Positions 10,721-35,302 of a stretch of DNA of 64,000 nucleotides are shown here, in pieces. The notes beneath the pieces are model-generated. The model made no database searches, was not told the origin of the DNA, and was given only the letters and a program-made list of their open reading frames with translations. Each line of letters begins with the position of its first letter. Positions within the stretch are counted from its first letter, which is position 1. The DNA is from Curvularia clavata. Taxonomy: Eukaryota. The stretch lies in the NCBI GenBank assembly GCA_023920165.1, contig CP089274.1, positions 5,022,001-5,086,000 of the forward strand, in the 5' to 3' direction. Made by a program: the position numbers and the translations under genes.

Positions 10721-12910
10721 ATGCAATCTTTCCACGCTTACATTGACACATTCAATGCCCATGTAGGGAGGTCGACTTTTGGGAGAATATTTCGCCTTGA
10801 AGGCAGTGGACATGTGCGTCTCACCGTTGGAGCTTGTTGTCCCTGGATTACTCGCTGACATGAATGATAGGAGAATGAGATCAGGCATACTAGGCTTACC
10901 ACTGAAGTTCGAGCTGGCCTCACTTCTTTCTTCACCATGTCATACATCATTGCTGTCAATGTCAGTATACCCGCATCCAACTTTAATGCTTTACTGAAAA
11001 CACCAGGCCACCATTCTCTCGGATACCGGTGGAAATTGCGTGTGCAATGACAAGAACGACCCTCTGTGCTTGGAAAATAATGAGTACCTCCTCTGCAAAC
11101 AAGGCACGAGCATTCTGCAAATGCATCTTCAACCCCGACTAACATCAGCTCAGAGGTCAACCGCAATCTAATTACAGCAACGGCAGCAGTAGCAGGATTC
11201 AGTTCCTTCCTTTTTGGCTTCCTCACTAATATGCCAGTATGTCTTGCCCCTGGAATGGGATTAAACGCATACTTTGCCTACCAAATCGTCGGTTTCCATG
11301 GAGGCGGCCTCATCTCTTACGACCTTGCGCTTACTGCCGTCTTTGTTGAGGGCTTGATCTTTATCTTTTTGTCCTTGATCGGAATGCGACAATGGCTTGT
11401 CAAGGTCATCCCTGTATCGCTCAAAATTGCCGCCGCTTGCGGTATAGGGTTGTTCCTGGCTGAAGTTGGTTTGAGCAATAACGCCGGAATTGGAGCTATC
11501 GCTGGTTCAAGCAGTACACCACTTGATATTGCTGGATGCCCGGATCAATTCAAGGACGAATTCGGCTCATGTAAAAGTCACAAGATGACTTCTCCTACGG
11601 TATGGTGTCTTGCGATACCTCAACAAGACCCAGCTAATCAGAGCGCATAGATGTGGCTCGGAATCATGGGTGGCGGCGTTCTAACGGCATACCTAATGTC
11701 TTACAAAGTCAAGAGTGCTATGATACTGGCTATCCTCCTCGTATCCATCATCTCATGGCCGTACGTATGCGACAAGTCTACTGAGGGTCCAGCTATACTG
11801 ACATTTTCTCAGACGAGGGACTCCGGTGACCTTCTTTCCAGATACTGAAGTTGGCAACAATCGCTTTGAGTTCTTCAAAAAGGTAGTCAGCTTTCAGCCT
11901 ATCAACCGAACCTTGAACGCCCTGGACTGGAACATTGCTGAAAAATCGGGCCATTTCGCTCTCGCTCTCTTCACCTTCCTGTATGTCGACATCATCGACT
12001 GCACAGCGACGCTCTATTCCATGGCCCGCTTTTCTGGCGTTGTTGACTCAGAAACGGGTGATTTCCCCAGATCAACAATCGCCTACTGCACAGACGCGTT
12101 CTCCATCTCCGTCGGCGCTCTTCTTGGCTGTTCGCCCGTCACCGCTTTTATTGAGAGCGGCGCCGGTATCGCAGAAGGCGGGAAAACAGGGTTGACGGCC
12201 ATGACTTGTGGGCTGTGTTTCCTGATATCCATGTTCTTTGCGCCAATCTTTGCATCCATTCCTCCTTGGGCTACTGGATGTACCTTGATCCTCGTAAGTT
12301 GTTTACTGAACACTCCTTACTCGGGTTCGTCGTTGACTCAATCTACACAGGTTGGTTGCCTCATGATGCGCCAAATCACGTCGATCAACTGGCGCTACAT
12401 CGGAGACGCCGTCCCTGCTTTTGTGACCGTCATGTTCATCCCGTTTGGCTATAGCGCGGCCTATGGTCTAATTGCGGGGCTAATGATCTACACTGCCCTC
12501 AACGGCATGATCTACATGACAAAGGTTATTTCCAGAGGCCGCATCGTACCAGACGACGAGGATCGTCGCGAATATTGGACCAGTAAGTTTCAGAAGTCAC
12601 TGGACAGCACCCTACCTTCCCTGTTTCACGAGCCCGGGCTGATCTTGTCAAATTAGTCAAACCCGCTGGTCGCCTCCCCTGGTTCGTCTCCGCAAGCCAA
12701 GCAGTTGCAGATCGTGTACGCCGCACTCCCGGGTCAAGCGAAGACATTGCACTCTCCGACCGCGACAGTGAGGCGGAGTGGAGGTACCGCGAGCGTATTG
12801 GTTCCAATGGATCGCACCGCGAGCTCGAAGCGGTTATCGTGAAAGCACTTCCTACAGACCCGCGCCACGAGAAAGTTTTTACTAAGATGGGGGTACATGA
12901 AATGAGGTGA
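10721..12910 (+). CDS. azgA: AzgA-family purine (adenine/hypoxanthine/guanine) permease; about 8 exons
   Basis: EVRAGLTSFFTMSYIIAVN, NMPVCLAPGMGLNAYFAY, FLYVDIIDCTATLYSMARF and SPVTAFIESGAGIAEGGKTGLT are AzgA signatures. ATG at 10721, TGA at 12908-12910. Confidence 0.9.
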
Positions 12911-14936: not shown

Positions 14937-16093
14937 TCAACACACCATCCCCCCATCGATCTGATACACCGATCCGGTCACAAAGCTCGCCTCGGTACTC
15001 AGCAAGAAGCGAATTACTTTCGCGACTTCATCGGGGCGCGCGCGCCGCCCTAGCACTGCATCGTTCGGCAGCGCGAAGCCCAGCTCCGCATCGAGAGCAT
15101 GCATGAGGGGCGTGTCTACAAAGCCACTACCGAAATGTCGTAAGTAGACTATTCGCGCCGCAATAATCAATCCGCGGCTTGCTGTCCCGCACGCACGTGC
15201 GCACATTCATCAGTTGCGGCGTTCGTACGTGCAGCTCGGGTATGCACGTCAAGGACGGCGAGCGCGATGTAGGTATCCACCAGAGAAGAAGGAGAAGAAG
15301 CGGGAGTGGAGAAGCAAAAGCAACACCAGAAAAGAAGAACAAGCTACTTACGGCGCAATAGCGTTGATTCGAATACCTGATTCCGATTGCTCGCGCGCAG
15401 CGGCTTTGGTAAGACCTATGACTGCGTGTTTCGAAGCGCAATAGATGGAGCAATTGGGCTTGCCCACGAGACCGGTTATCGAGGCTGCATTGACGATGGA
15501 GCCGCCTGGTAGTCCGTCCTTCGCGACACGCATGTTTCGCAGTTCGGCGGACATGCAGTTAAAGGTGCCTTCGACATTGACGGAGAAGACGGCTGCGTAG
15601 TTGGTGGCGTCGTGGTCTTTGGCGGACGCGAGACGGCCTGAGATACCGGCGAGGTTCACGGCACCTGTTTTTTTGGTGTAGCGTGTTAGTCGGTGCTGTG
15701 TTTTTATCAAGGCATTTTGAGCAGAGAAGCTCTAAGCATAGATGTTTTTCATTTTCTCCAGAAGCGTGCTTACTTACCGTCGATACAGTCCATCCCCCAC
15801 TGTGAAGCCGCATGACCCAACCATTCCTCTACTTCCTCCCTCTTCGTAACATCAACTTTGTATCCTTTTGCGTTCTCTCCTAGCTCAGCTGCAAATTGCA
15901 TAACAGCACTTTCGTCCCTGTCCGCGAGCGAGACTTTGGCTCCGCTTGCGACGAGAAGTTGAGCCGTTGCGCGGCCGATGCCTGATGCTGCTCCCGTGAT
16001 GGCAAAAAGCCGGCCCTGAATATAGTGCAGATTTCCAGTGGAGCTCCCAGAAGTTGTTTCATGGCTCTGAGAAGGCTTCGGGGTTTGCATCAT
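14937..16093 (-). CDS. Classical short-chain dehydrogenase/reductase (SDR); 3 exons
   Basis: TGAASGIG (TGxxxGIG), VNLAG, IVNAAS, catalytic YCASK (YxxxK), IRINAIAP, and [14 protein letters not shown] at the C-terminus. Confidence 0.9.
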
Positions 16094-16699
16094 GGGAAAT
16101 GTGTCTCCTGCTGATATGGGCGATGTAGGATGTGGTATGAGCGCGTTTGATGGAAGGGTGCAGCTACTGAATGAGACACAAGTAATGAGGAATATCGATG
16201 TGTTCAAAGTATCGGATCGCTGCCATGAAGTGGTTGAGATACTTGCTCTGTTCGCTGCTACCACCTATTCTTGCGATGAGGTGGGGAGCCGACTATGCAG
16301 CTGCCGTGCTTCTTACAGTGCTCTCCGATACATATGCTGCGTGCCACTTCATACTCTACATGCCGCAAAAACATTTTCGAACTCTCTCTCTCCGCCTTTA
16401 GTCGTATATCCTCATACTTTAATCTCTTTCCACATTTTACAGAATGGCCAATTTTCGGAGTGACGTCCTTGGACTCACTCCTGGTTAGCTCAAGTGACAC
16501 AAAGGTCGGTTGTGCCGCAGGATAAACTTCGTGTGTGATTTTCCTACACCTAAGGGAGAGACGGAAGCGTTGTGTAAAGTGATACGTAATTCTAGACGGA
16601 GTGATCTCCGGTCACCACTTTTGCTTCTCTCAATACCACAGCTTTTTTTTCTTACTCCATTACTCATCTCTCGCTGGCTGAAGAGCTGACATAGTCAAT

Positions 16700-19600
16700 T
16701 CCCATTTAATCCCTCCATCTCCGTTGCACGAGAAACCCTGGGGACTTCAGCATGGTTTTGGCCGCCGACAGCCTCATATATTCCGGACAGCGTGCTTGTT
16801 CTATAGTCATGCCTCATTCGCCGATGGCAGACTGGATGAATTAAGTGTGAATATTATGAAAACATGTTGGGTGTAACTTACTGAATATCCGTTTACGCAG
16901 TTGTACCAGTGTTCAGAGTGTGTTGTAATTCGTCCTGGTCTACTAACCATTGCTGTTTTGATAGCTTCCAGTTTTTCCTTTAAAACTCCCTTGTAAGACT
17001 CCTTATTTGGCATCTCTTTTGAGGTTACTATGGCTTGCAGCAGGGCATATCGACCGCGGAAAGGGTGTTTGCAAAACTCCATCGCCTCTGTCAAAGACTT
17101 TTGGCGGTGCTGCGGCAATTCATTGCTTGCGTACGACCAGTACGTATCCTTGGCAACTCCAACGTAGGTGAACATCTGATCAATGCGGGCATAATATAAG
17201 AACGTCTCAACGTCAAGCTTAGATAGCTTTATCTTAAAGGCCATATTATTCGTGGTGCTGTGCATGATGGCTTGGTACAGCTTGTACGTCAGTTAATGTT
17301 GAGGTCCACTCTGAGTCTGAATGACTTCACAACATTCAATAACTCAGGTCTTTTCAAATATCTCTGAGCATATAGTAGATGTATATCACCATCAACTTGT
17401 CAGGAATTTCACTGCTAGCCAGAATTGGAGATGCAGGAATGGCAGTTGCCCGCGATGCTTCGAAGTTGGTTCGCTGAGCATTAAGCCTGGCCCCTAGCAA
17501 CTGAAGCTTCCGTTATCCACGGATGATGAAACGTTTGGACATAACGTCCAGGATAGCTCGGTTGATAAGGCGGTTGTAGCGCTGCGTAACGTGCTGCCTG
17601 ATGGGTTCTTTGCAGTTTGCTGAAAGCTCAGCTTTCTCAATCAGGCAGATGAATTTGCCTTTCTTCTCATCTACATCGTATACGTATTTTAGGCGCACAA
17701 GGACATCCAGAGTTTCAATTGTAAAAAATTGACCACAGCCCAGGACAACTATGGGTGTTTCGTTGAGATTAACGGTGGGATAATGTGACATCATGATCAT
17801 ATCTGGCTGCTCTTCGGACTTCGTACTACATTGCTGGCAGTAATCGATAGGGCGATCTTCACTACAAAAGGCGGGCCATCGATGGCCACATGGCTGAAGC
17901 CTGGTGCAACGCTCATCGCAGGGTAGGCGATCACAAGGCGCTGAACACGGCATTTTGCAACCACCCTGGTGATCGTATGACCACTGACATGGTTCATTGC
18001 ATGGTTTACAAGGTTCATGGCGCTTCTTTGCATATCGGTTGTGTTTACGTCGTACCTGCAAATGTTAAACGAATGCGTTAGAAGTGTTTGTTTGAGACTT
18101 ACTTCACACTGCTTTTGACACGTTCCACAATCTGATCCATTGTGGCACGCACGCTTGCAATTATGGTTGCAAGTTCCATGTTTTCTTCCCCACGGCTTTT
18201 GAAGTGTGGAATGTTTGACTTGTGGTTGACCATAGACGTCTTTGGTATTGCAGTGACCGTAAGTGCGGGGGCAGGAATGGCGGCAGGGCAGCAACGATTT
18301 GCACGGTGTAGGGCATCTGGCAAATTTTTGGGAATCATCCAAAGAGAACTTGAAAATCGCATCGTGTCCACAGCCCGGCATTCGTTTGCGGGCTTTCGCG
18401 TCGCAAGTGATGATAGCGATATCTTGAGTGAGGTGACAACGGACCGCATACTTGAAATGACCACATGGAATCTGTGTATTGTCCAACAGAACCATGAATT
18501 TGCCGCAGGGCTCTCTGCACCTAGCCTTCTGACATGGATGGTTACAGGGCCGGTGTCGACGTTGACACGGCTGCTCGCGCTGGAACGCTAGATGCATGGT
18601 TTCTGAATGACATCTTGCTCCGCATCGACGACCACAATCCAGTCGGTCAATACACGCTTGAATACAGCCACCTTCGGGACTGTGTTGGTGGAAGTCATCT
18701 GGCTCTTGCACTTCAATAGGCATCGCAGGGTGTCGAGGGCAGGACAAAGCGAATTTCGTACCGACACGACCGGCAGCTTGGAGGATGGTGATGACTTTCT
18801 GTCACATTTCAATGCTTGTGTACGTTTCCGTATTGCCGAAGAGATACCTCCCGTGCTTGGCGCAGCTGAGAAGTACATTAATACGATTGGGTGTCTTAAG
18901 AAACCCAACTTTCTGTTTGTCATTGCTTCGTACCAGTGAGATGGTGACGATCTTCGTTTCCTCTCCTAGGATGTTATCAACAGTGGCAATTCTCAACAAT
19001 TCGGAAGCTTCTTTTTCTCTAATATCGCGCCATTACCTGCTCTGAATTTAAGTGATCCCTATTTTTTCCGGTGCGTCGTCCTCAATTACAAACCCATCAT
19101 TCTCTAATACTTCTCCGTCGCGGCCGCTGAGGTAAACCTCGAACTCTCTCCTCATGGTGGACTGTAACTCTTGAAGCTGATCAGTACATGGTGTCAGAAT
19201 CGCAATATCGCCAAGTTTATATATGCCTTGGCGAACAACGTGTCGCACGAGTGCATGTACCATCTCAACTTCTCACGAGTTCGACATGAACTTATTGATA
19301 TGAGAATTGTCAGCAACCTGATCTTCGAATCTCTTGTGGTCGAACCAGAAGACCTTATAGCGCACAGAAACTACATCAAGTAGATTGATGGTGGAGGGAT
19401 GGTCTCAGATTTTCCTGTATATGGTTTCGCGAATCAGTAAAGATATTCGTGGGCGCATTCTGTGTTGAACATTGAGTTGAGCAACGGATATCAACGGCCG
19501 TTCAGGTTGACTAATACGAAGTCTTTCGAACTGGCTTCTGTCGAGCTGGTGAAGCTTTCTTCGTTCGCTCTCAATTGAAAGATCCTGGAAGTTGTTTACT

Positions 19601-19700
19601 GAAAGCCGAAGTTGCGGATGATCACCAATCTGTATCACATGTGTATTGTCTGACAGTAGCGCAGATATCATATGGCTCTCCATCACGTCCTTTGCTTTTT
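16700..19700 (-). pseudogene. Truncated, degenerate ZNFX1-like gene (UPF1-like SF1 helicase C-terminal half, NF-X1-type Cys-rich fingers, RZ-type finger)
   Basis: Helicase motif remnants IGDHPQLR, SQFERL, LNVQHRMRP, IATVDNILGEE and NRINVLLSCAKHG, then CPRHP and long C/H-rich repeats, then HWYNCVNG...AIGE*GM.IEQARCPE..VGGQNH. In-frame stops at 19405, 19273, 19048, 18802 and 16814, apparent frameshifts, and no Walker A or N-terminal half. Confidence 0.85.
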
Positions 19701-19993
19701 ATAGCCCTTACAGCTCTACTTGTAAAAGTAGCTGTAGTTGTCACAAATATTTGTTACTGTGTCAACAGCGTAGGTGAGCTCGTTTTGATACAATGTTCAA
19801 GTTCAACACTATCTCCAATTGCAGCCTTGTGGTATATCCTCCCTTTTTCTGACTGATACATGGTATGAAATAAAGGAAAATGTAATCTGAATAGTAATAC
19901 ACAGTCTTGGCGCCATTATGCTCATCCCAAACTCCTAGTCGCTCACGCAACACAAACATGTTGATTTAATTCTCCCACAGGAGTGTCAGGCGC

Positions 19994-21493
19994 TTAGTAC
20001 TTTTGCCGTCCCAGTGTTGGTTTCCAGTCCAAAGGATGCGTCTCCTCAGTGGCATCCTCATCCTGCTTCCATATCTTGATTGACTTGTCGGACTCACCAG
20101 TGATGAGACGAAGGCCGGTCTTGTCAAAAGTCGAGCACATGATTCCTGCTTCTGCTTCGAGGGAACCAGGTTGTGCGATGCTCTCTGTGTGTTGGAAGCG
20201 GTGACCAGTTTTCCAGTCATAGAAGGAGACTTCACCGTTGTCACTGCCAGCAAACATCATGTTATCCTCGTTTACCGCAAGTGTATTGATGATGCTGTTG
20301 ACAGGAGAGAAGTTTTGCATAAAGTCTCCGTTGGGGCATAGCCACTGCTTCGCGGATTGTGCAGAGCCAGAGGCGAAGGTGAACTCTGTGGGATGTATGG
20401 CCAGAGCGCGAACAGACTTCTTGTGGTGAGTCAACACGGTTCTAGTCTTTCCTGCGACGAGGTCCCAGAGTCGAATGGTGCTGTCCATGCTTCCGGAAAT
20501 AACTTGCGGTTCGGCTTCTTGACATTGGATCGACGAGATTGTTCCTTTATGGCCACCGAGGACGTGAATGTTGCTGCGTGTGCGCATGTCCCACACACGG
20601 ACTACACCATCTCGCCCTCCTGTGCACAACACGTCTACAGTTGGGTGGAGCGAAAGGGAGTAGACTCCACTCAGGTGGCCGTGGTAATGTCGGATTACTT
20701 TGTTAGTCTCTAGGTCCCAGCACTTGACCATCTTGTCTTCGCCACAGGAAAAGAGATACGGGTGCCTTGGGCTCACCGCAAGGCCTCTGACTGCCGAAAT
20801 ATGTCCTGTGAGGGTAATTTTCAATCGACCGCTCACAAGATCCCAGAGCTTGATGGTGCGGTCCGCTGCACCAGTTGCAAACCATTCGTTTCCAGGCTCC
20901 ATGGCCACCGAACGCACCCAACCCATGTGACCGCTGATGACCGTCTTGACTTTCCAAGGAGCATGCCATTCAGGCTTCGCCTGTCTGACCACGTCCTTCC
21001 TAACCAGCGAGCTGGATGTTGGGTCTCTGTTCGGTGTAGGCCCTTGTGCGTTTGGAGCGGCGCCTTTTCCTCCAGCTCGTACTGCCAATTGCATCGATTG
21101 CGCGTCGCGCGCCTTGTCGGCCCTATCTGAGACTCCCTCAATCATCTTCTGCATCTTAGGGTCTGAAGCCTTCTCCTCGGCGTTCTGAGCCTTAATCTTC
21201 TTGCGGCGCTCCGCTGCTGTAGACGCTGCGCTTGCCATCTTTGCTGCAAGAGCAGGTGGCAGTTCGCGTACGTGTTCGTATTCATTGCGAATGCGCGATG
21301 CGACGCCCGCTTGCTCTGCGGCTGTCGAAGGGGCTGGCGAGGTAGGGTGTATAGAGAAGCTACTGTTGGATGCGTGTTCCAGTGCTGCGGACGAAGCAAA
21401 GTCGGCCTGAAATATCTCTCGCGTGCGCTTGGAGGATAACCGTACGAGCTGCTCCGCCGTGCTGGGAGGTCGCGAAGCTGCCGTGTCGGCCAT
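19994..21493 (-). CDS. PRP46: Pre-mRNA splicing factor Prp46 (PLRG1), WD40 repeat; intronless
   Basis: 499-aa ORF with PEWHAPWK...[37 protein letters not shown] and C-terminal EDATEETHP. Confidence 0.95.
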
Positions 21494-22283
21494 GATTACG
21501 GACGTTGGCGGGTTTTATCAGAAAAATGCTACACCAAGGAGACAGCGATTCGGATGAAGGCAAAGACAACGGCAGCGACGAGGGGTTCACGTGTAGGGGA
21601 GTTGGCTGTGACTGGAGGCCAACACTTCGTCATGAACTTAAGATCGCGAACGCCGACGGAAGTTTCACTAGCGCGTACCAAGTCGGCACGAGCTCATATC
21701 TCATCTTATCTGATCATCTTATCTTATCTGTACCATTGATATACAAGATGGTAATGCGCAGAAGCTGCTCGACTTTTAAGTTAAGGCTATGGGTAACTAT
21801 GCATGCTTGTCTTGTCCATATGCTTCATCTACAAGATAGATTATTAGTAATCCAGAGCAGGTCTAGTCCCGTATGTGCTCAAATGATTAGTCTTGCGAAA
21901 TACGATGACTGATATTGATGCAATGATGAATATTCAGCGCATAACACTATAGAATATCTTCATTGAAGTACTCAAAAGCTTTTAATTTGGTGGATTCCTG
22001 CCGTTTATGGGTTTGCTTTTCCAGTTTCTATACATAATCACGTGATGATTAGACTTGGCATGGCATCTTGATTCAAGATGGCAAGCATCGCTAATGCACA
22101 TCCCTAACTCCAACTCTTCGTAACGTTGTGATTGCACTATTCATTCCAACCTCTTTCGAATATATGAGCTAGACGACATTCTTGTCTTTCGCTGTATTCC
22201 CCGTACAATGCCAATCAAATTCGCTTCGCTCTACTCGGCGCTATGCCGAGTAGTGCTGGAGAAACTCCGCCTGAATACTGATC

Positions 22284-23260
22284 ATGAAAGACAAGGAACT
22301 ATGCTGCACACCCATGGTTGCTCGTATGAATCCAACAAATAGCGAGATGAGCCTCTCCGCCGCCTTGGCGCTCGGATGTCACGTTCTCATACTCGGATCA
22401 GCCGATGTTCTCCAGACAATGCGCTCACCCAACAGAAGAGTCCTCTCATGCCTGATTGCTCAAACCCAACAACAAAGTTCATTTCGCTTTCCCAGGACTG
22501 ATAGGAATCCAACCAAACTTCGATACATATAGCGCATACTACGTATGGCAGCTGGGATTTGGTATGGACAGTTCAAATGGTCAGGGCGCAGGCAAATACT
22601 CCAGATTTCTATCGGGTTCGATGGAGATCGTCGCAGAGGCGCTCACTTGGGCCTTAGCATTGGAGCTGTTGTCATGCTCCGAGGACACCGCTACACCTTG
22701 CTTGGAATGGCATGTGCGTGCATGCGTACGTACAGGTTTTTCGGACTACGCAAGGATACGACTCAGCGCCACTGATTTGTCGCTGTTCAGGTCCTGTGCC
22801 GCTGCGGCGCAAATTATGTAAACGATGAAGCCGTTCATTGGAGTGCTGCTAATGAACTTAATGCGCGCTGCTCAATCCCTACTCAAAGCCATCGACGCAG
22901 AGCCAGCCCTTGGAGACATGGAAAAGGTCTTTGGCTGTCTTGTGGACTCTCTCTTGCTTCTCACAGGCTCAGGGACAATGCTTGTTTCCCCAGATTTCCC
23001 GGGTTCTCCGCTTTACAGCTCCATCTTCCAAGCTGTTTTGCTTGGGGCCGCCAGACAAAAGCACATGCTGCCGAGGAAGTCGATGCTACGCGCAGACCGA
23101 GCCGTCAGATCTTTCCATACAAGGAAGCTGTCTCCGCATAAGAATGACGCAGGAACGCACAAGCCTCGCCGTTCAAAGATCGCGTTGCTTGGCCATTGAC
23201 ATTGACTACATCGCATCAAACGACAAGCGGTCGCTCGATGACCAAAAAGCAAAGCCGACT
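22284..23260 (+). pseudogene. Possible degenerate ORF of unknown family
   Basis: ORFs 22456-22821 and 22825-23199 are in the same frame and separated by a single TAA (ATG TAA ACG ATG). The composition looks globular-protein-like but I recognise no motif. Confidence 0.3.
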
Positions 23261-23596
23261 TGAGAAGACTATCTTACAGAAAGACGCAGGTACGGCAAGC
23301 CTACCAGTCTCACGCCACTCAAATCGCCTTGCCAAAATCCTTCACGCACAGTGTACGCTGGGGGCCATTCGGATGACACATCCGGGCGGGTGGAGGACTA
23401 GGATTCTCAGCCATTTCCAAACGGCTTTAGCCAGAAAGGGACGCATGTTGGCTATCCCGGATGTTTGACCAAGAATGGGAACTCAGGGTTGCGGGGTTGC
23501 AACAACGGGCTCTGTAGTCGCACATCACATGTAGAGCCCCCTTTCCCAAGGGCTTCGATGCATCGGTCCGCAGGAAATTGTTTATTTCGCGTACTG

Positions 23597-23832
23597 ATTG
23601 GCATATTACATGCGTTTTGGCAAACACCCCGCGACTGCCAATGCTGCCCCGGATTTCCTCGTTGGCGCCAATCCTGGACAGGTTAATGTCCGGGCCACAT
23701 CCGCACCACTTCCAATCAACAGCCCACATCCAACAGCCTGTAGTCTTCCAGGCCCTGCACCGGCCAATCCAATCAGCCTTTGGCCCCTGAACAGACCCCG
23801 GGACCAATGTTGTGACCCTGCGGCGAGCCAAT
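23597..23832. promoter_or_regulatory. Cluster of 8 CCAAT boxes upstream of the CFEM gene
   Basis: ATTGG at 23597; CCAAT at 23638, 23668, 23712, 23764, 23769, 23804 and 23828. TATA-like TATAAA at about 24252. Confidence 0.55.
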
Positions 23833-24367
23833 GACGTCTCATTATGATCTCGGGGGATCGCGGCTTGGCTCAACACAATAAAGTACTACACACCATGCTC
23901 GTGTGTTTGCCAGCAGCCAGCAACAAGGTCTGGGGGCTGACGCGGCAATGCATCCCTTCCAGGCATCTGGATCTGCCATCCATCATTTGCTGATTCCACC
24001 CGGCGCCTGTTTTCCGCACTCAATAAACTTCGCCGTCTGCAGTTCCGTGCATGCAGCCGCAACTAGTGGATTAGTCTGGGGTAGGGTCACCTAGCGTTGC
24101 CATATCGAGCAATACCTCCAGCAGTTTTTCGAAGATCTTGATGGAGGCAAGAATCCTAATGTGACAAAGACCAGTTTGTGGAGCCAAACCCTACCGATGT
24201 ACAGGCCTATTCCCTTGTTCAGACATGGGGCGCCTCATGACCCTAATGTCATATAAAGAGTCTCTTGTAGCCTCCTCTGCTCCTATCCACAAACCCTACT
24301 GTCGTTATATACATACCATTAGCTTTTGCTCCGTCCACAGCTTTACCCAGCCCAAACAACCGCCAAA

Positions 24368-25046
24368 ATGAAGACCTTCACTGTCGCCTCTATCATCGCC
24401 TTGGCCTCTGTTGCCAGCGCTCAGCTCGACAACATCCCCCAGTGCGCTGTAAGTCTTCCACAATCCATGTTGCTTTTACGCCCCAAGTAAATTTGTACTA
24501 ATATCAAACTAGCTTGCCTGCTTCGTCGGTCCCCTCACCAGCGACGGCTGCGCAGCCCTCACCGACTTTGCCTGCCACTGCAAGAAGGGTGACGAGCTCC
24601 TTTCCAAGGTCCAGCCCTGCGTCCAGGGTGCCTGCTCTGCTGCCGATCAGCAAAAGGCCATCGAAGCCGTCGAGTCTACTTGCAAGGCCGCTGGTGTTCC
24701 AATCACCATCCCTGGCAGCGGTGCCGCCTCCAGCGCTGCTCCCTCCAGCGCCGCGGCTGCCTCATCTCAGGCTAGCTCCGCCGCTGCTCCTTCATCTTCC
24801 GCAGCTGCCGCGACCTCTGTCATCTCCTCTGTCGCTTCTGCCGCCTCCTCCGCAGTCTCATCGGTTATTTCCTCTGCCAAGGGATCCGTCACCCCCGTGC
24901 CCATGCCCACCGTCAACAGCAGCATGCCCTCTGCTTCCGGCTCTGCCAAGCCCTCTTCCGTCTCCGAGTTCACTGGCGCCGCTGCCCAGGCTACCCAGGC
25001 TGTTGGTATCATTGGTGCCGCCGCCCTTGCCATGCTCGCTTTGTAA
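24368..25046 (+). CDS. GPI-anchored CFEM-domain cell-surface protein; 2 exons (24368-24448, 24513-25046)
   Basis: Signal peptide MKTFTVASIIALASVASA, an 8-Cys CFEM (IPQCA|LACFVGPLTSDGCAALTDFACHCKK...QPCVQGAC...ESTC), a Ser/Ala-rich stalk and a GPI signal (FTGAAA...GIIGAAALAMLAL*). It is not present as a correct frame in the ORF track. Confidence 0.92.
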
Positions 25047-26098
25047 ATTACTACCAACATGTCTTCATTGCACTGACGTCTGATACGAGCTCGAGCCGAC
25101 ATGGCTGCGGGCGAGGAATGGTAATGGGATAACGATGACGGGTCTTCAAGTTTGGGTTTGCATGCCTTGTATACCATTGAAAACAAAATAATACAACTAC
25201 TTAATATCTATGATTTTTCTTGTTCCTTTGATCCCATGACACGTTGAGATGTGTTAGTTGAGTGTAAATGTGTTGGTTGATTGATTACCCCAACTTACAT
25301 TTCTTCCCTTCCAACTCTACGTTTGCGCCTATGAATTATCCTTTTTTCTCGCGTCCCTCCTAGGTGCCGTATAGATGAGGGTTTTTTTAGGATCGCCCGA
25401 TTTTCCGCCAGCTCCCTTGTGCGGTTTTGAGCGAGCGGGTTTATCCGACTATTTCAATACACCAAGAGACCAAGACCGACATCCGACCCAAGAATTTAGA
25501 TCGCTGTAATGCACAACTCACAGTCAGACTCATACCGTCTTGTGCGGTAGGATGTATATAAGACTGTTTACATATTTCTATCTACATTGTATCTTTGGGA
25601 GCTGAAAAGCGCGTTTTGCCAGAGTTGGTGGGTAGCTGTAATGTTGTGGTAGGGGCAGTTTCTGTTCGACTATGTTGGTACACCAAGAATTAGTGTAGCA
25701 ACGCTCCCTCATTCTAGAAATATGCATTGTCAGGTTCAGCCTTCTATACTTCGTGGAATGGGCCAGGAACAGATAAGAAGTGTAACACAGACACGTAACA
25801 GCACGCTGTCATCTGAGGTATATTTTCTTGCACCAATGAGCGTGAAGCAATGTCTCCTGCTAACCAAGCAATATCTTCATGAAAAGAGCCCACCCACCTA
25901 GGCCGTAGGAATTTGAAGCAATCCTAGACTTAGCTACTATCCTATTAGTGAAGCTGTACCTGGTGGATACGGTATACGGCGGCACGCGGATCGACGTCAG
26001 TGGCCTAAGCTCCGAAAGTGGGCTGTCCGCAACACCAAGCCTCCCGCATCTTCGGCCACGACACCCAAGATGCCGAACCGGGCGCCGCCAGCACGAGT

Positions 26099-29000
26099 AT
26101 GGCCACCGTGAAGCGCAGAGACCTTATTCTTGCAGCCGTCGCAGTATTCATCGCCTGGGGCTATTTGACCCACTGGCAGCCCAAGCTGCTCTACCTCCCC
26201 TACGCCTTTGTCACCGGAGCACTCGCGACGCTCGCACTGCTGGCATGGCTTACCTTCACGACCGCCTGGAACAAGGACCTGCGAAGCGGCGGCCAGGTCG
26301 ACTACGGCCCGCGCCATGTTGCCTTTGTTGCGCCAGACATGTGGAAGGCTGAGAGGGAAGCTCTGGACAAACGGAACATGTACATGATGGAACCGCTATA
26401 CCCCGCGTCCTTTATGATATCTGACAGTCTCGATGTCCTGATCGGCTTGATACTGCGCGATTTTGTGAAAGGCTGGTATGGAAACATCAGCAAGAGCCCC
26501 ACGTTCGTGCATGAAGTCGACAAGGCAGTGCGCGTGGCCATGGGAGAGATACGGGAACGGCTGCTGGCAGTGGATATGCTCGGGACAGTCGTGTCGCGCA
26601 TGATTCCCCTTATTACCGACCATTTGAAAGCATCATACGAGGCTGAGCGCGTCGTTCGAGGGCGCAAGCTGTCGCGCAATATTACAGATTCAGAGGAGCT
26701 TGACCTTGCCATCGCAGCTAAATATAAAGACGGCCGACTGCATCCTGCTGCATCGTTGGCGTATTCAAACACCAAGCCAATACAACAGCAGCATCTAAGG
26801 AGCATCGTCTCGCGACTCCTACCAAAGATTATGCCTGCCAACATGTCCACAAGTCCGGCTGTCAATGTACTCATCAAAGAGATCGTGGCCTGCGCAGTCC
26901 TGTCGCCCGTGATGCACATGCTCGCTGACCCTGATACGTGGAATCAACTCATGGAGGGTTATGTAAGGACTTTGCTGGTCTAGAGTTGAATGTTGCTAAC
27001 AGCCTCAGGGTCGGTCTTTGCTACAAGAACGAAAGACAGTCCGCAAGCTGCGAGCTGCCCTCGACGAACATGCCCCGCCCTCACAGAAACCATCCAAAAT
27101 TACGCAGTTCCCTAAGCTGGCACCTAGCGACAACGAGCGGAAATTCGAACGCTTTATGCGGGCAATTCAACAGACAAATACGCTCGCGGACGCCAGACGT
27201 TTTCGCAGTGAGGTCGCAAGCCAGTTACGCAAAGACTCCATAGTTGAAGGTCAAGACCCTGTTTATTTACGGCGTCTTGAGTCAGCACGTAATGTATTAG
27301 ATACAAAGGTTGCAACGCTCAGTGCCGGCGGATCAGTTCGAGCCAAAGTCGCAGCACAGGAAGCTCCAAAACACAAACGTTCGTCGTCCAGGTTCGCCAA
27401 CGCATCGTTGCGTGAAGTACTATATGATGCATCTGGTCTGTCCTGCTTCATGGAGTTCATGGATCAGGCAGACCTTATGCGGCTGGTGCAGTTTTGGATT
27501 GTTGTGGATGGATTTCGGAACCCATTAGAAGTAGAGACTGATGAAGGTCAAGACTACGTTGGCGCGCTTCCCACATGGAACGAGTCAGACCGTGCAGACC
27601 TGGCGCAGATCTATGAAGCATACTTGTCCAAGCCTGAACTCAAGATTCTCCCTGAAGCCCGTCGAGCGGTTGCAGAATTTCTCAAAGCCGGACGAAAAGC
27701 GACACCGCAACAGTATCACAATGCGCGACGTGCTGTTCTACGGGCGCAAACAGCCGCATATGAACAACTGCAAGAGCCGTATTTCCGAAGATTCAAGAAA
27801 TCCAACCTATACTACAAGTGGCTGGCCATGGATGAAGCAGCGAATGCTGACCGGAGCACTGGGACAATGAGGACTCAAGCGCAGCCACCTGACATTGCGC
27901 CCCCAACGGCACCATCTCGTACGCACTCGAGGCAAAACAGTTCATTACATACGCCGCAAGGGGATCTGCGTCGAGCAGCCGCCTCCTCTTCAGACCTTAA
28001 GAGCCAAGCATCAATTACAATCAACGAGCCACCTGCGCGACGTTCCTTGGACGTAGCGCCGTCAACAGCTAAGCGCGCACCTTTGTTCGACGATGAGTAT
28101 GACTCTGACCCACTTGCACACTCCACCGCAAGTTTGAATTCGGATTATGGACATGATCGAACTGGCGGCCACGATGCCCGAGTAGTTGATGCCATGCATG
28201 CTGCTCTAACAGACATCATGGATGAGCCTGAAGGTTCCATTTTCTATGAGCCAGGTTTAAAATCCCCCATAGACAATGACTCATTGCGAGGATCTCTTGA
28301 CTTGCCTCGAGCATTATCACCTAATCCTCAAGGACAGCAGAACAAAGATAGTCTGAAGCCGAGTATAGCATCGCTTGGTCTAGTCGGGGAGCCGAGAACC
28401 CGTGGTGTCTTTGACGATGATTTATTTGGTGACGAGCAAAAGTTTTTGGAAGATGAAGTTGAGGATCCAGTACCAAGCGAGAAAGCGGCCGACGAGGAGA
28501 TACACGAAGCTGCTCCCGGGGATCTAGGGTTAGCTGAAGCTATCGATGCACTCACTGCCGATATCGAGCGCCTAGTAACACAGGAGTCCATTGTGGATTC
28601 GCTAACGTCGAAGGCTGAGTTGACCAACAACGCCGCCGAGCTTAGAATCTTGCGCAAGTCTAAAGCTAGCTTGCAACGGGAGATCCAGCGGAAAGAACTT
28701 CAACGACAGCAGTACATTGTCCAAGAGAGTGACAACAGTTTGTACGGGCGTGCGAATGTGTTCATCCAGTCAATAATGGTGGGCACAGAAGAAGACGGCA
28801 AGGAGTACGCCATGTACGTTATCGAAGTCCGACGGCGCGCAGGCGATCAGATGCCTGCTGCAACTTGGGTCGTCTCGCGTCGATACAGTGAGTTTCACGA
28901 ACTGAACAAAAGACTCCGTGCAAAATTTCCTCAAGTTCGAAATCTTGAGTTTCCGCGCCGCCAGATGATGCTTAAGCTTCAAAAGGACTTTCTGCACAAA

Positions 29001-29919
29001 CGGCGGCTCGGTCTAGAGAAGTACCTGAGAGAGCTACTGCTTATCCCGGCAGTTTGTCGTAGCCGTGAGCTTCGAGCGTTCCTTTCTCAAGCTGCGATCA
29101 GCCCCGCCGATGCGCTCAAGAATCAGGATCCAAACTCGAATGATTTCGTCACCCGTATTTATAACTCTGTAGCAGATGGCATGGAAGAGTTCCTTGGTAA
29201 CATTCCTGTCCTCGACCAGCTTTCGGTGGCGGGCCAGAACCTCATTTCTGCTGCTACAACACAGCTCGCCAACACAAACGGCGCAACCGCACAACCTACA
29301 AGCCTTGCCTCTTCTGGTGTTTTAGTTGCGGGTGAGCCTAATCCTGACGCAGAAGCCGAAGCAGAATTACTGGCATTTGAGAACAAAGAGCTAGAGCCTT
29401 TTGTAAAGCCGATATGCGATCTGTTCTTGGAAACTTTCGAGCTGAATCGCGAGAACAACTGGCTTCGCGGTCGCGCTGTCGTCGTGGTCCTACACCAGCT
29501 CTTAGGCGGCACCATTGAACGCAAGGTCCGCGAATCCTTCAATAATCTGTTGTCTGAAATGAACATTGTCAAATACATTGACACATTGAAAGACAGCATG
29601 TGGCCAGACGGGCGAATGAAGGCCAGTGTAGAGCGAACGAGCCAGGAAAAAGAGAGGAGCAGAAAAGCAGCGAGTGACGTCCTCAGTACATTGGTGCCTG
29701 AATTGGCTAGCAGTGTCGTAGGGAGACAGAACGCACAATTGGCGGCAAAGAAATTGGAGGGAACTATCAATAATTCACGTTTGAAGTAAGTTTTTTTTAC
29801 GCACCATCCTTTTTGCCTGTACAGCTGTAATACTGACAACTCCATGTAGTACCCATCTTGCTTTTACGCTACTAGACGAGATGCTACAGGTGCTATTTCC
29901 TGATGTCTACATGAAGTAA
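26099..29919 (+). CDS. PXA-RGS-PX-nexin C sorting nexin (Mdm1/SNX13-like); 3 exons
   Basis: N-terminal TM segments, PXA (ILRDFVKGWYGNIS...ADPDTWNQ), RGS-like (FMEFMD...VQFWIVVDGFR), PX (VSRRYSEFHEL...RRLGLEKYL) and nexin-C (NWLRGRA...DSMWPDG). Introns at 26963-27008 and 29786-29849. Confidence 0.9.
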
Positions 29920-30163
29920 TGTGTATATGAATGTACAAGGGGAAGCATTGCATGGATGGCGTTGTATAAGTGCTAGAACTCATGTTGATCCTGTGTAGTG
30001 TTTCAGAAGATATAGTAGCTGTTCAACTTACAAGCATGTGTATAAGATGTGTTGAACTCAAAATCGTCATAATGTTCCCAATACGATACACGTTGTCACT
30101 GACTAAGGTTATGTCCCAAACTATTCATTGTGCGTCGTAAGAATCATGCCAAAACAGAGGATT

Positions 30164-33100
30164 CTACTCAGAATTACCCATAACACCTCTACCGAACCAC
30201 TCACTGATAACCGCAAACCCATCCTTGCCCCTCTTAAGAGCATCCTGGAAAAGATCATGCCTTTCTGCACTCTCCACCTGCGCACGTCTAATAGCCTTAA
30301 CCGTCGCGTTATTCGCACTGCAAATCGGGCATTCGACCTCCGCATCATGCACGTCCTCGTCTGTGCTCAGACAACTCTGGTGATAACTGTGCTTGCACAA
30401 AAAGTGCACAACAGGCAGCTCCAAGCTCTTCATGCAGACTTGACAGCGCGAGTTCTGGAAGACGGCAGGCTTGGTGTTGAGAGCCTCCAGCTCGGCTTTC
30501 TTGGCAGATGTATCGGAGCGGAACGTCTCAATGTTGCGGCGATTGGCGGCGATTTCGGCGCGCTCGCGTTCGATTGTCGTGCTGAGATATGTTTTTATCA
30601 TTCCCATTGTTGCAACGCCGTTGATGGAGAGGGTCTGGATGACCTGGAGCGGCGCCATGAGGCCGTCTTCATCGATCTTCTTGAGTACAGAGTCGAGTTC
30701 GTCACCTGCTTCTGCAAGAATTTCTGGTGTCGATGTGAAGTACGCAAGTGCGGCTGGATAGAGTGCTGGTTCCTCCGGACCGTATTTTCGCAGGGCGCGA
30801 ATCGCGCCTTGGGTGTCATTTGCTGCTGTATAGGAGCGGAAAATGTCAAAGTAGAGGCCTTGCTGCTCGCGGACAAGGATTGCTCCGTCGCGGAAGTTGG
30901 AGAGGTGGGAAAGTAACAACACGTTTGAGGTGTCGATGGGTATGTCCTTGCCTTCAACAAGCTTCTTAGCCTTATTCTCCCATTCTTGTCGCTCGCCGTC
31001 TTTCTTCGAGGATGCGGTGTGCAGGTACATCTCGAACAGTGTCGTGTAGAGATCGACCTTGTCATCTTCGCGAAGATCATCAGATGCAATGCACGCCTCA
31101 AGGAACACTATGAATTCCTGAGGGTGATCGACAAATGCCGAGAATGCAGTCCGGGGTTTCGGCACCTTGTATTCAGGAGCGGGCTCATCGGTGGTCGTCT
31201 CGATGATTTGGGCTTGGCTCATAGTCCCCTTCTGATCGCCGTTGGGAGGTGATGCCAACGCGTTGGTGTTCATGTAAGGTAAAGGAAGGAGTGCGGCAAG
31301 GTTCTGCACAGCACTGGATGCGACGCCGAGGCCCATACCCATGCCTTTCTCAGATGGAGGAGCATTGGGGATGACGATAGCATCCTGCTTTGGCCGAAAT
31401 TTGCCAGTATAGTAGTCGATGAACAGCTGGGTGGTGTCCTTCGGTAAGTGCTGCAGTAATACGGTAGCGTACTTCATAAGATTGAAATACGCCACTTCTG
31501 GTTCCAGTCGCCATATGTAAGCCAAGGCTTCTGCGTACCGCTTTGAATCTTCAATCAGAACATCCACGACCAGTTCATGCTCCCCATGCTTTCGGGCCAG
31601 GAAAGCTGCTTGGTCGTAGTAGCCTCCCTGTCGACACATCGAAATCGCTGTGTCGAGATCGAATTTCAGGTCGTCAGGCGACTTGATGAACTCTTCAAGC
31701 TTTTCTACATCCTTGAGCTTGGCATAACAATTCAAGAGAAGAGTAGTGTGGTCTGATGTCGCTTTGTGGTGATCATGGAGCTCTTCAAGATACTCTATCA
31801 AGTTATGAATTCGCTGCGTGTCAAGAAACTGATTTGTCCATTAGTCATGAGCCTGTTCGATGGCTGGTGTTTACATACCTTTCGGATTACCTGAGATGGC
31901 TCAGTGTTGTCAATGGCTTTGAGGTACTGCTGCATAGCAGTATCATAGTCTTGCTTGGAGTACAAGTAGTCGCCAAACTTGCGAAGGATGACATTCTGTT
32001 GAGAGGAGTCCAGGCCTGCCTTCTGGGCCAAGTTAATAGCCAGAACGTACAAGTTGCGTTGGTACAATATGTCAAGCTTCTGGGCAAAAGGTTTCTCATG
32101 ATATCTGAAGATCTAGATGCTGTTAGCTCTGAATGCTGGTACTATTTAGATAGCGTACCTTTCCGTCGATTGTGAAGACAAAAAGATCTCCCCATTCGGC
32201 GACGACGGCCTTGACTTGCGAGGTCAGTTGCTCCTGATGCGCAATGAATCTCAACTCTGTATTGAGGAGCGTGAAGCTGGAGGTGTTGAAGACATCGTCA
32301 GCGGCAGCGACACCAAAGGCTCGGAGAGGGTTGGTCCTGGGCATCGCATTCGACTTGGGAGGCGCGATGATGGCTATGTAGTCCTTGAACACGGAGATCA
32401 TCTTCTTCTCTCCTTCATACGTGTACGGTGGCCCGCGCCCATGCTGGCCATAATAGTAAATAGCATCGTTTCGCGCAACTACCACATCTCGTGTCGATTT
32501 GTCTACAGCCATGCAGCCCACCCCGCAACCGTACTCATCGAGGGATTTCGCGGGCTGACCTTGTCCCCTTCCAGATATTACGAGGGTCATGATGCGGCCA
32601 GTGGTTGCAATGTACAAGGTGGTAATATTGCCTTCCCGAAACTCGATACCCGTAATAGGTTCTTCGGATTCGAATACAGTCCGTTGACGCGCGCCGCGGT
32701 CGTGTATGAGGTCGCCACGTACGACGGTGACGGCACCATTTGCAAATCCGACTGCCAACTGAGACAGATCATCGAGTGCTGCGAATGCGGATATGGGGAA
32801 CTGCTTGCGTCCGTTGTGAATGGTGAGGGTGCTCTGGCATCGTGGAATGCCCGTCTTCTTCTCGAGTTTGTCCAGGGCCCAGACCTTCAGAACCGGCTCG
32901 TCAGAGAGGTCTTCGGCTATGGTGACGAGGAGAGAGGTGCCCTCGATTTGCTTCATGTGGGTAATTGAGCCTGCGTCATAGGCCTTGAAGGTGCGCACGA
33001 CCTTGAAGGCCTGCGACACGATGCGAACGACGCCATCTGCACCGCCGAAGAAGATGTTTTCCGATCCGGATACAATGCATGTGATGTCTCCAATCTACAA

Positions 33101-33287
33101 GTATTCATAAGATGGCGTCGGCGAAGAGGAGGCTGTCATCATACCTCGGACAGGAAAGAGCTCTCGTCGTCGGGGAGCTTGACTTGCGAGACGTCGAAGA
33201 AGCGGAACTGCCACTGCTCGCCTGTTAGCACCACCATTGCGCGATATGAAGAGCGAATGGTTGGACACGTACCGGAGTGACTGCCAT
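30164..33287 (-). CDS. VPS11: Vacuolar protein sorting protein 11 (HOPS/CORVET class C subunit); 5 exons including a 15-nt first exon
   Basis: MAVTP|WQFRFFD N-terminus, EPITG, EPSQVIRK|FLDTQRI, clathrin-repeat region HTTLLLNCYAKLKD, RING-H2 (CQVC...VHFLCKHSYHQSC...CPIC), C-terminal ISEWFGRG. Confidence 0.93.
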
Positions 33288-33804
33288 GCTGCTATCGCTC
33301 CATGCTCGCCGCTGCCTGTATGACAGGAGCTATCGTCACTCGCAACCCTGGTCGGGGAGGTACGGCCCACCTAGTGACCGTGCGCCTGCACCAATGAGCT
33401 TTCGCGCACGGCGGGTGGCTCAGCAGTGCTTGGCGCTCGCCCTGTTGATAGATAGTCTTGTGTTGCCTCGCGCTCCCTCTCCCCTTTCCTCATCTCACCA
33501 CACACACCCCCACCTCACAATTCGCTCATCGCATCTGCGCTCCATCAACCACAGGTCCATTCTGTAGCGCCACCCTCTCTGCAATTGCGCAAGCCCACTT
33601 GACTGCTTGACCCGCGAGTCTTACCATCCACGACGCGCCTGGCCCCAAACAGCGCGTTCTTTGTCTTCTCAGTCGCGCCTCCATCAAAGAGACCACTGCC
33701 CCTGCTACTCCAGTAGCTTTTTCATCGTCCGCCCGACATCAGCGCGCCTTTCCATCAACGCCCGCTCAGTCCCAAGTATAATCACTTCTCAACCACTCAT
33801 CAAC

Positions 33805-35302
33805 ATGTCTTCAAACAAGATGGAGCAGAGCCTCGACGACATTCTCAAGGCCTCCAAGACCTCGCGCCGCGGCCGCAACAACCGCCGCTCTGGTGCCGGA
33901 CGCCCTGCCGCCGCCGCCGCCCCTGTAGGCGGTGTCGTAAAGGCGACCAAGCAAGCCAAGCCAACCAAGGCTGCGCCAGCCGCGCCCGCCACTGTTCTCG
34001 GCGGCGAGACCAAGATCATGGTATCCAACTTGGTATGTTTTTTGCCCTCTTCGACGCGCTCGAACCATGCTAACGCGTACCAGCCAAGGGACATTGACCA
34101 AGCCCAACTCCAGGTATGTAAGACCGATGCAGGTCTTTGAGCCTAGTCTTCTCGCGTTTGCGAACACGTACGAGTGCCATCCGACAAACCGAGCCTATTC
34201 CCTTCGCCTTCGGTATGGATGTTGAGCCATGACTTGCCAAAAAATCGAACCATGATCTGTGTTGGGCACACAAGACTGGGACAAGATTAGCAGCATGCGA
34301 ACATTTTGAGCTACCGCAGCGACGAAAGTGGGAGATCCGTATTCCAAGCTACACTTTCCAAGTGGCAGCACAGACAGCTACGCTCCAGTGACTTTTTCCT
34401 GGATGCCACGCAGCAACTCAAGCCAGCCATCAGAGCAGCGAGACGAGAGCGCTGAGTACAGTCAATGATAGCCTTCAAGTTACCAGAGGGGCGTGGGCAG
34501 GCATCAGTCGACTATCTCGCAACGTTGTAACACGTTACTCGCAACAGCCGCTGCTGCGCTGAGTTAGCTTTGTCTTGCCGAACTTTGCGTTCAAGGCCCA
34601 AGATGAGGACTCCCACTTTCCGAGCGGTACTCACTACCGCGAACAACGAAATCGACGACTACCCACCGCCGACGCCGCACTCGCAGCCGATGTTGCCTCT
34701 ATTTATCGCGTACTCAACTCCTAGCACGACCACTAATACGCCTTGTAGGACTACTTTGCTTCAGCGATCAACGTAGGCCGGCCAAAGAAGGTTCTTCTCC
34801 AATACGATGCTACTGGCCGTAGCGTTGGAAGCGCCACCATCATCTTCAACAAGCACGAACAAGCCGCCAAGGCTACTGCTGCTCTTGATGGCGTCAAGAT
34901 TGACGGACGTCCGGTTCGCGTCGAGATGCTTGTCAGCCCTAGCGCAATCCCAGCTTCCGCACGTCCGGCTTCGCTCGCCGACCGCGTCACGTATGTACAA
35001 GCGCTTCACTTGAAATAGAACGTTGACTAACATGCACATGCAGCCAACCCAAGAAGGACAAGCCCAAGCCCGCTACCACAGAAAAGGCTGCCGCCGGTGC
35101 TACTCGTGGAAAGGGACAGACCCGTGGACGCGGAAAGGGCCGTGGCCGCGACCCACGTCCCAAGAAGAAGACTGTTGAAGAGCTGGATGCCGAGATGGCC
35201 GACTACTTCCCTGGAGGTGAAGCCAACAATGCTACCAGCAACACTGAGGTTGCTCAAGTCACCGCCGGCGGTGACACTGCCATGGACGATGAGATGCTTT
35301 AG
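33805..35302 (+). CDS. YRA1: mRNA export adaptor Yra1 (ALY/REF family); exons 33805-34032, 34084-34113, 34749-34990, 35044-35302
   Basis: REF-N box (MEQSLDDI), RRM (KIMVSNL|PRDIDQAQLQ|DYFAS...LQYDATGRSVGSATIIF...LDGVKIDGRPVRVE), RG-rich segment, REF-C box (KKTVEELDAEMADYF). Confidence 0.92.

Follow-up and report, generated by a model that had tools for sequence, protein, structure and literature searches.

Within the 64-kb window analysed here (64,000 nucleotides of contig CP089274.1 of Curvularia clavata; source assembly GCA_023920165.1, 32.4 Mb in 8 contigs), a coding stretch on the minus strand is broken by stop codons, which raises the questions of what this gene was, how it was broken and what was lost with it. 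The best explanation as a whole, with a probability of roughly 0.8, is that it represents a unitary pseudogene of an RZ-finger fungal ZNFX1 which was cut at an inversion breakpoint in a Curvularia-lineage fungus.

Six-frame translation and tblastn with intact homologues identified the 3′ half of a ZNFX1-type gene at 19698-16713 on the minus strand, as a preliminary description of the sequence had reported from minus-strand pieces with helicase motifs III-VI, fingers and an RZ finger. The remnant aligns to residues 905-1958 of the intact 1959-aa Exserohilum orthologue (P0246) and shows the domain order helicase motifs III-VI, Cys/His fingers, RING-like segment and RZ finger; two introns are retained:

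18103..19698, minus strand: long-exon remnant (end of Walker B, motifs III-VI, Cys/His finger array)
18056..18102, minus strand: intron of 47 nt, GT..AG, at the orthologous position
16882..18055, minus strand: second-exon remnant (last fingers, RING/Miz-like segment, first half of the RZ finger)
16832..16881, minus strand: intron of 50 nt inside the RZ finger, GT..AG
16713..16831, minus strand: last exon (second half of the RZ finger)

The intron at 18102-18056 is common to five of six intact loci and that at 16881-16832 to all six. With both introns kept at the positions of the relatives a processed pseudogene is ruled out, as had been stated beforehand. The helicase pieces do lie in one frame across stops, namely 533 codons at 19698-18100 on the minus strand with five stops (three TGA and two TAA). 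The Pfam domain AAA_12 (UPF1-like SF1 helicase, C-terminal RecA) matched the remnant with an E value of 2.5e-29 over 194 of 195 profile positions. The profile check proposed for the stitched translation was also carried out: a ZNFX1-type profile of 20 intact proteins scored 1253 bits against the X-stitched translation, and an RZ-only profile of our own, built from the orthologues, gave an E value of 3e-23, with a stop in the place of the catalytic Cys. Taken separately, the RZ pieces of the remnant had no Pfam match (orthologues: PF20173, E 7e-21 to 1e-22). The NF-X1-like Cys/His fingers are collinear with those of the orthologues and free of gaps, with several invariant Cys/His residues altered, and Pfam finger models had no match in the remnant translation. 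At the place of the Miz/Z-RING the orthologues have a conserved C-G-H-F...C-P-x-C segment, judged by position because the human ZNFX1 chain in the PDB is alignable only to residue 1446; the remnant is without the His and one Cys of this segment.

Homology to the intact proteins begins at residue 905, inside the EEAG Walker B motif, and therefore Walker A and most of Walker B are gone. The N-terminal region with Walker A/AAA_11, present in the orthologues, was found in neither the window nor the genome, in agreement with its reported absence, and a DNA profile of the 5′ half detected no trace of it in the window (best E 2.3; 1472 bits for the 3′ profile). This loss bears on the status of the remnant as an intact member of the family, not on its descent.

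As to descent, a search among longer proteins gave 950 matches for the remnant, the best 120 of which, all either fungal or unnamed, belong to the kind called "NFX1-type zinc finger-containing protein 1" (47-67% identity, many with PF20173), and the closest homologues were from the Pleosporaceae. A phylogenetic tree was constructed from the helicase segments of 34 proteins, S. pombe Hrr1 and N. crassa SAD-3 not being among them. This tree placed the remnant with P0246 of Exserohilum and the unnamed P0005 (support 100/100), within a 25-row clade of RZ-type proteins (97/99), on an end branch of 0.64 as against 0.065 for the sister and 0.10. The Hrr1-like proteins, so labelled from database names, formed a separate clade (100/98) with the remnant outside it. 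An open Hrr1-like gene is kept on contig C2 of the genome (P0125), and a third family member on C4 (L009:2849-8600), a ZNFX1-like helicase followed by exons of an AAA (AAA_lid_6) ATPase, is apparently open and forms a long separate branch. Three RdRP and three Piwi (Argonaute) loci also exceed their family cut-offs, with four matches each. As the remnant lies in the RZ clade and the Hrr1-like gene is kept, the lost gene was the animal-like helicase-ligase rather than the RNAi helicase, and the link to an Hrr1-type RNAi helicase drawn in the preliminary description does not hold. The available part of PMC5384783 sets N. crassa SAD-3 apart from two more distant paralogues, NCU05861 and NCU09357, and these three genes fit the Hrr1-like, AAA-fused and RZ-type genes found here.

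The suggested search for an intact paralogue was made with the full-length protein, the N-terminal 822 aa and the RING-RZ exon as queries; in the assembly these returned only the remnant and distant paralogues, with no second RZ-type copy. A PF20173 search of the genome gave zero candidates and missed even the remnant, making it too insensitive to judge copy number. The locus thus combines disabling lesions, relaxed constraint, an intact orthologue in relatives and no working copy in the assembly, and it is virtually certain that it is a pseudogene and a vertical orthologue of the RZ-finger fungal ZNFX1. No Bipolaris-named protein was present among the best 120 of the 950 matches or among the cluster members listed, while Bipolaris names do appear for the Hrr1-like gene, MDM1 and PRP46, and a shared or separate loss of the RZ-type gene in Bipolaris is possible.

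Lesions were called against six metagenome-contig loci, drawn from ten that were found. The tally for the minus-strand remnant was seven in-frame stops, seven frameshifting indels and two in-frame deletions:

19407: TGA stop, long exon
19275-19273: TGA stop, long exon, facing TGG (Trp) in 6/6 intact loci
19050: TAA stop, long exon
19035: TAA stop, long exon
18804-18802: TGA stop, long exon, facing TGG (Trp) in 6/6 intact loci
17515: TAA stop, second exon
16816-16814: TGA stop, last exon, in the RZ finger, facing TGC/TGT (Cys) in 6/6 intact loci
19032: indel of +1, long exon
after 19006: indel of −1, long exon
after 17348: indel of −4, second exon
after 17304: indel of −1, second exon
17146: indel of +4, second exon
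after 17095: indel of −1, second exon
after 16778: indel of −1, last exon, abolishing the last zinc-binding Cys of the RZ finger
after 17620: 18-bp deletion, second exon, taking out one Cys of the RING/Miz-like segment
after 17234: 261-bp deletion, second exon

The three stops that had been named beforehand, two at Trp and one at the RZ Cys, were thus found as described; the other four stops, all seven frameshifting indels and both deletions had been missed. TAA also stands at a Gln position. The stop at 16816 occupies, by residue spacing, the position of human Cys1860, which is the RZ nucleophile of human ZNFX1 according to the available parts of two preprints (10.1101/2025.10.14.682297; 10.1101/2025.09.05.674436). 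Further changes are a His to Gln in the RING/Miz-like segment and a His to Tyr in the first half of the RZ finger, which has lost two zinc ligands overall. Among the 266 columns invariant across the 20 intact proteins, the remnant has changed or lost 61, as compared to 1-10 for each intact protein when left out in turn as a control. The dN on the remnant branch was 0.18 vs 0.08. Synonymous differences to all six loci, none of them congeneric, were saturated (0.78-0.85). It should also be noted that, relative to the Alternaria orthologue P0012, the reading frame changes within the helicase region of two loci that look intact (L023:11158-11356 and L022:10729-10770), through either an intron or a lesion.

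Frameshifts are a typical error of long reads, and the broken frame could in principle be an artefact of assembly or sequencing. This was examined with contigs, not raw reads, of three other studies (X3, X4 and X6), in a comparison that took in four of 19 runs; X1 and X2 were left out as a possible source of the assembly, as were X17-X19. One X3 contig covers 16944-19848 as one piece with six differences and no gap, X4 contigs cover 18974-19224 and 19238-20025 with zero differences, and X6 covers all 6101 bases with 96 differences, three gaps and the same junction, an agreement not at the level of single stops. With the same sequence in the contigs of three other studies, over the parts covered, an assembly error is given practically no weight. 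An additional 1-bp deletion was present at 17187 in X6, and a low-depth X4 contig has one at 17190. Decay of the remnant continues among strains.

The stops could also have arisen had a duplicated gene been destroyed by repeat-induced point mutation (RIP). The GC content of the remnant (46.8%) is below that of the genes around it (52-55%), and 68 of its 171 specific changes are C>T or G>A, as RIP would lead one to expect. However, the C>T rate was lowest at CpA (17/201), compared to 16/132 at CpC, 18/107 at CpT and 17/122 at CpG; the RIP indices (0.63 and 1.32) are as in the neighbouring genes, and a second copy of the gene is absent from the assembly. The context counts refute RIP, unless the RIP of this lineage has no CpA preference, and this origin is regarded as very improbable.

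The two TGA stops at invariant Trp codons are suggestive of a gene that still functions, through A-to-I editing, read-through of the stops at Trp positions or TGA read as Trp. Restoration of premature stops by editing is described for filamentous ascomycetes in the part of PMC11156358 that is available; however, the fungal stop editing described there targets UAG with G depleted at −1, and the stops in question here are TGA. Nor can recoding of any of these kinds repair the TAA at Gln, the TGA at Cys, the seven frameshifts, the deletions or the missing 5′ half, and its probability is put close to zero.

The pseudogene reading leaves the question of how the 5′ half was lost, for which the surroundings of the break are relevant:

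19697..19789: repeat fragment, a 93-bp internal piece with both ends missing, abutting the 5′ break of the remnant
19994..21493, minus strand: PRP46, an intact WD40 gene in one exon, now the immediate upstream neighbour of the remnant
26009..29789, plus strand: MDM1/sorting nexin (PXA, RGS, PX, Nexin_C), moved and inverted compared to relatives
30164..33094, minus strand: VPS11, convergent with MDM1

The end of PRP46 (19994) lies 296 bp from the start of the remnant, close to the 300 bp first estimated. MDM1, the usual upstream neighbour of the intact gene, is here 6 kb off on the opposite strand. Three of the ten metagenome loci (L014, L020 and L023) carry PRP46, MDM1 and the intact gene on one strand, four further loci (L016-L019) have MDM1 before the gene, two (L021 and L022) have neither neighbour and L015 is too short. 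The gene and MDM1 are consecutive by accession in Exserohilum (EOA82015, EOA82016), Decorospora and Plenodomus tracheiphilus, though these numbers give no orientation, and the Exserohilum PRP46 (EOA82021) is five accession numbers past MDM1. In Ampelomyces and Cucurbitaria, two of the five named species, the gene and MDM1 are 48 and 12 accession numbers apart. The proposed synteny check therefore yielded an intact allele in relatives, but one usually preceded by MDM1 and not by PRP46. Upstream of PRP46 in the window, a stretch of about 550 bp (22974-23508) is 62-64% conserved in L014, L020 and L023, with no clean ORF and no Pfam or Rfam match; it is possibly a conserved non-coding element or a small multi-exon gene.

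The parent of the junction fragment is a dispersed repeat of about 225 bp with terminal inverted repeats of about 29 bp and 45 matches in the genome, and its family profile has a single match in the 64-kb window, at 19697-19789. The cut end of the repeat meets the cut end of the gene within a few bases. The repeat is MITE-like, being short and dispersed with terminal inverted repeats; no consistent target-site duplication was seen by eye in 14 aligned copies, Rfam had no match to the repeat or to any part of the window, and the repeat folds weakly (z −1.9). A rough chance of such a repeat at the break is 3e-4, a value that assumes 40 evenly spread copies and is too low, one side of the junction being intergenic. 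The repeat also has an internal direct repeat of about 30 bp, and its copies are 67-87% alike in the longer matches (e.g., L037, L043 and L039). A copy with an internal deletion is found upstream of the Hrr1-like gene (L010:1536-1699), and ends resembling those of the repeat occur on several X6 contigs. In run X15, for which RNA status is a guess and only contigs were used, one contig covers 19705-21600 and none covers 16640-19704; the gap is one run without cover and not evidence of silence. The X15 contig of PRP46 ends at 19705, a weak hint from one run that the repeat fragment (19705-19789) may lie in the PRP46 3′ UTR. No convincing repeat pair at both breakpoints was found over 15000-34000, and the best inverted pair (26 nt, at 16856 and 25043) lies elsewhere and was taken as chance.

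Inversion of the block from PRP46 to MDM1 in an Exserohilum-like order would produce the order in the window, VPS11 being unplaced in the relatives. It is suspected that one inversion of about 10 kb broke at the gene, with a second breakpoint in the roughly 200 bp between MDM1 and VPS11, and that the promoter and codons 1-904 (about 3.3 kb) would have been lost at or after this break. The repeat may have been the site of breakage or filler at the junction. Deprived of promoter, start codon and ATPase, the rest would have drifted neutrally, accumulating about 0.12 substitutions per site. Rearrangement in the Dothideomycetes usually takes the form of intrachromosomal inversion, as given in the available part of PMC3516569. 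The deletion followed by drift that had been proposed earlier is consistent with the 5′ loss and the neutral decay; it does not account for the coincidence of the break with a change of gene order and a repeat fragment, as the displaced MDM1 and the junction repeat had both been overlooked. Had the inversion passed cleanly through the gene, a 5′ trace would be expected at the second breakpoint, and the lack of one there counts against such an event.

The distances bear on the age of these events. Protein distances gave 0.33 for the remnant branch and 0.06 for the sister, and the excess, on the simple assumption of neutrality, amounts to about 0.12 substitutions per nucleotide site; the nucleotide test gave an excess dN of about 0.10 on the remnant branch. 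The junction copy of the repeat differs by 0.17 from the family majority (14 other copies: 0.10-0.30). From these distances and from X6, which differs by 1.6% over the stretch and shares the junction, the loss is placed after the split from Exserohilum and is much older than the sampled strains.

That the rearrangement was the first hit is given an even chance; a single dead copy does not record the sequence of inversion, deletion and first stop. A point change or small indel may instead have killed the gene first, with the inversion and 5′ deletion tolerated later, and the many independent lesions agree with this. Against it, the divergence of the repeat (0.17) is of the same order as the decay (0.12), which fits one old event without proving it, and the order with death first is held to be somewhat unlikely. 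Less likely again is an older inversion that left the gene intact behind PRP46, followed by a plain deletion from inside a repeat copy which took the 5′ half, the account nearest to that of the preliminary description. This would explain both the absence of a 5′ remnant on the MDM1-VPS11 side and a repeat cut exactly where the gene is cut; however, it needs a break in the gap of about 640 bp between MDM1 and the start codon (as in L014), followed by another event at that very place, and the repeat is without its other end too.

Under the preferred reading of a unitary pseudogene cut at an inversion breakpoint, the lost function has to be judged from intact relatives. The RZ-type genes of Exserohilum (P0246), Alternaria (P0012) and Decorospora (P0013) are direct orthologues with 60-68% identity over the remnant and with introns and gene neighbourhood in common; they differ from it in their length of 1900-2000 aa, their Walker A and a PF20173 match above cut-off. 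The best match of P0012 to a solved structure was human ZNFX1 (PDB 9q9z, E 4e-97; next UPF1, 6e-25), which shares with the fungal orthologues the succession of helicase, finger array, RING-like segment and RZ finger, whereas the window has the dead 3′ half only. The RZ spacing C-x3-H-x6-C-x8-C-x2-C-x8-H also equals that of human C1849, H1853, C1860, C1869, C1872 and H1881. RNF213 has only the RZ finger in common (P0012 residues 1907-1954 match its chains, E 3e-7). Hrr1 of S. pombe, SAD-3 of N. crassa and RnhA of Mucor are on the same helicase superfamily branch and about 26-33% identical to the RZ-type orthologues, but this kind forms a separate clade of proteins of about 1000-1230 aa without an RZ finger.

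For animal ZNFX1, the available parts of three sources describe a two-part ubiquitin ligase whose activation depends on RNA and ATP, together with an antiviral sequestration of RNA (10.1101/2025.10.14.682297; 10.1101/2025.09.05.674436; PMC13710534). In the two preprints, as far as available, RNA-activated ligase activity is shown for the human protein only, and the Walker A lysine, in the region absent from the remnant, is needed for ATPase and RNA response (10.1101/2025.10.14.682297; 10.1101/2025.09.05.674436). The architecture and the RZ residues are conserved in the fungal orthologues, which makes the same chemistry likely, and the lost protein most probably acted in the manner of animal ZNFX1, with ATP-dependent RNA binding that would switch on a RING-like plus RZ ubiquitin ligase. 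An immune role of the fungal gene would follow from the animal proteins only. No functional study of the RZ-type fungal clade was found in the literature searched, which mostly left out subscription papers. The available text of the preprint 10.1101/220111 names Hrr1/SAD-3 as the fungal counterparts and gives the zinc-finger region as absent from fungal orthologues; in contrast, the RZ-type fungal clade does have this region.

In this fungal class, the loss of a gene at an inversion breakpoint is nothing unusual, and databases already contain the family. The RZ-type gene is dead while the Hrr1-like helicase, RdRPs and Argonautes are kept, and it is therefore dispensable here and the roles of the two helicases are separable. 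The locus represents a natural knock-out of a fungal gene without a functional study, and one that may be antiviral by analogy. A beneficial virus is known from a Curvularia species. An antiviral role could be tested by comparing a lineage in which the loss is fixed with a sister genus that has kept the gene intact. In the strongest form, which is considered improbable, filamentous ascomycetes would carry a true counterpart of the antiviral animal ZNFX1, distinct from Hrr1/SAD-3, that ubiquitinates and sequesters viral RNA and was repeatedly lost in the manner of immune genes, with Curvularia (perhaps Bipolaris) as a natural knock-out of altered mycovirus load or tolerance. The accessible portion of PMC3571971 names NCU05861, the candidate RZ-type orthologue of N. 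crassa, as one of the fast-evolving genes, together with QDE-2 and an RdRP.

A small, secreted-looking gene was also noted on the plus strand at 24369-25046, with a Cys-rich N-terminus and a Ser/Ala-rich tail; it is CFEM-like by eye, and its second exon alone has no Pfam match. Other genes of the window were recognised by Pfam as ordinary neighbours:

376-1413: fungal rhodopsin domain gene
11084-12656: xanthine/uracil permease
15348-16264: SDR
37517-38110: aldehyde dehydrogenase
41076-42182: DDHD
58205-60422: ORC1/CDC6-like
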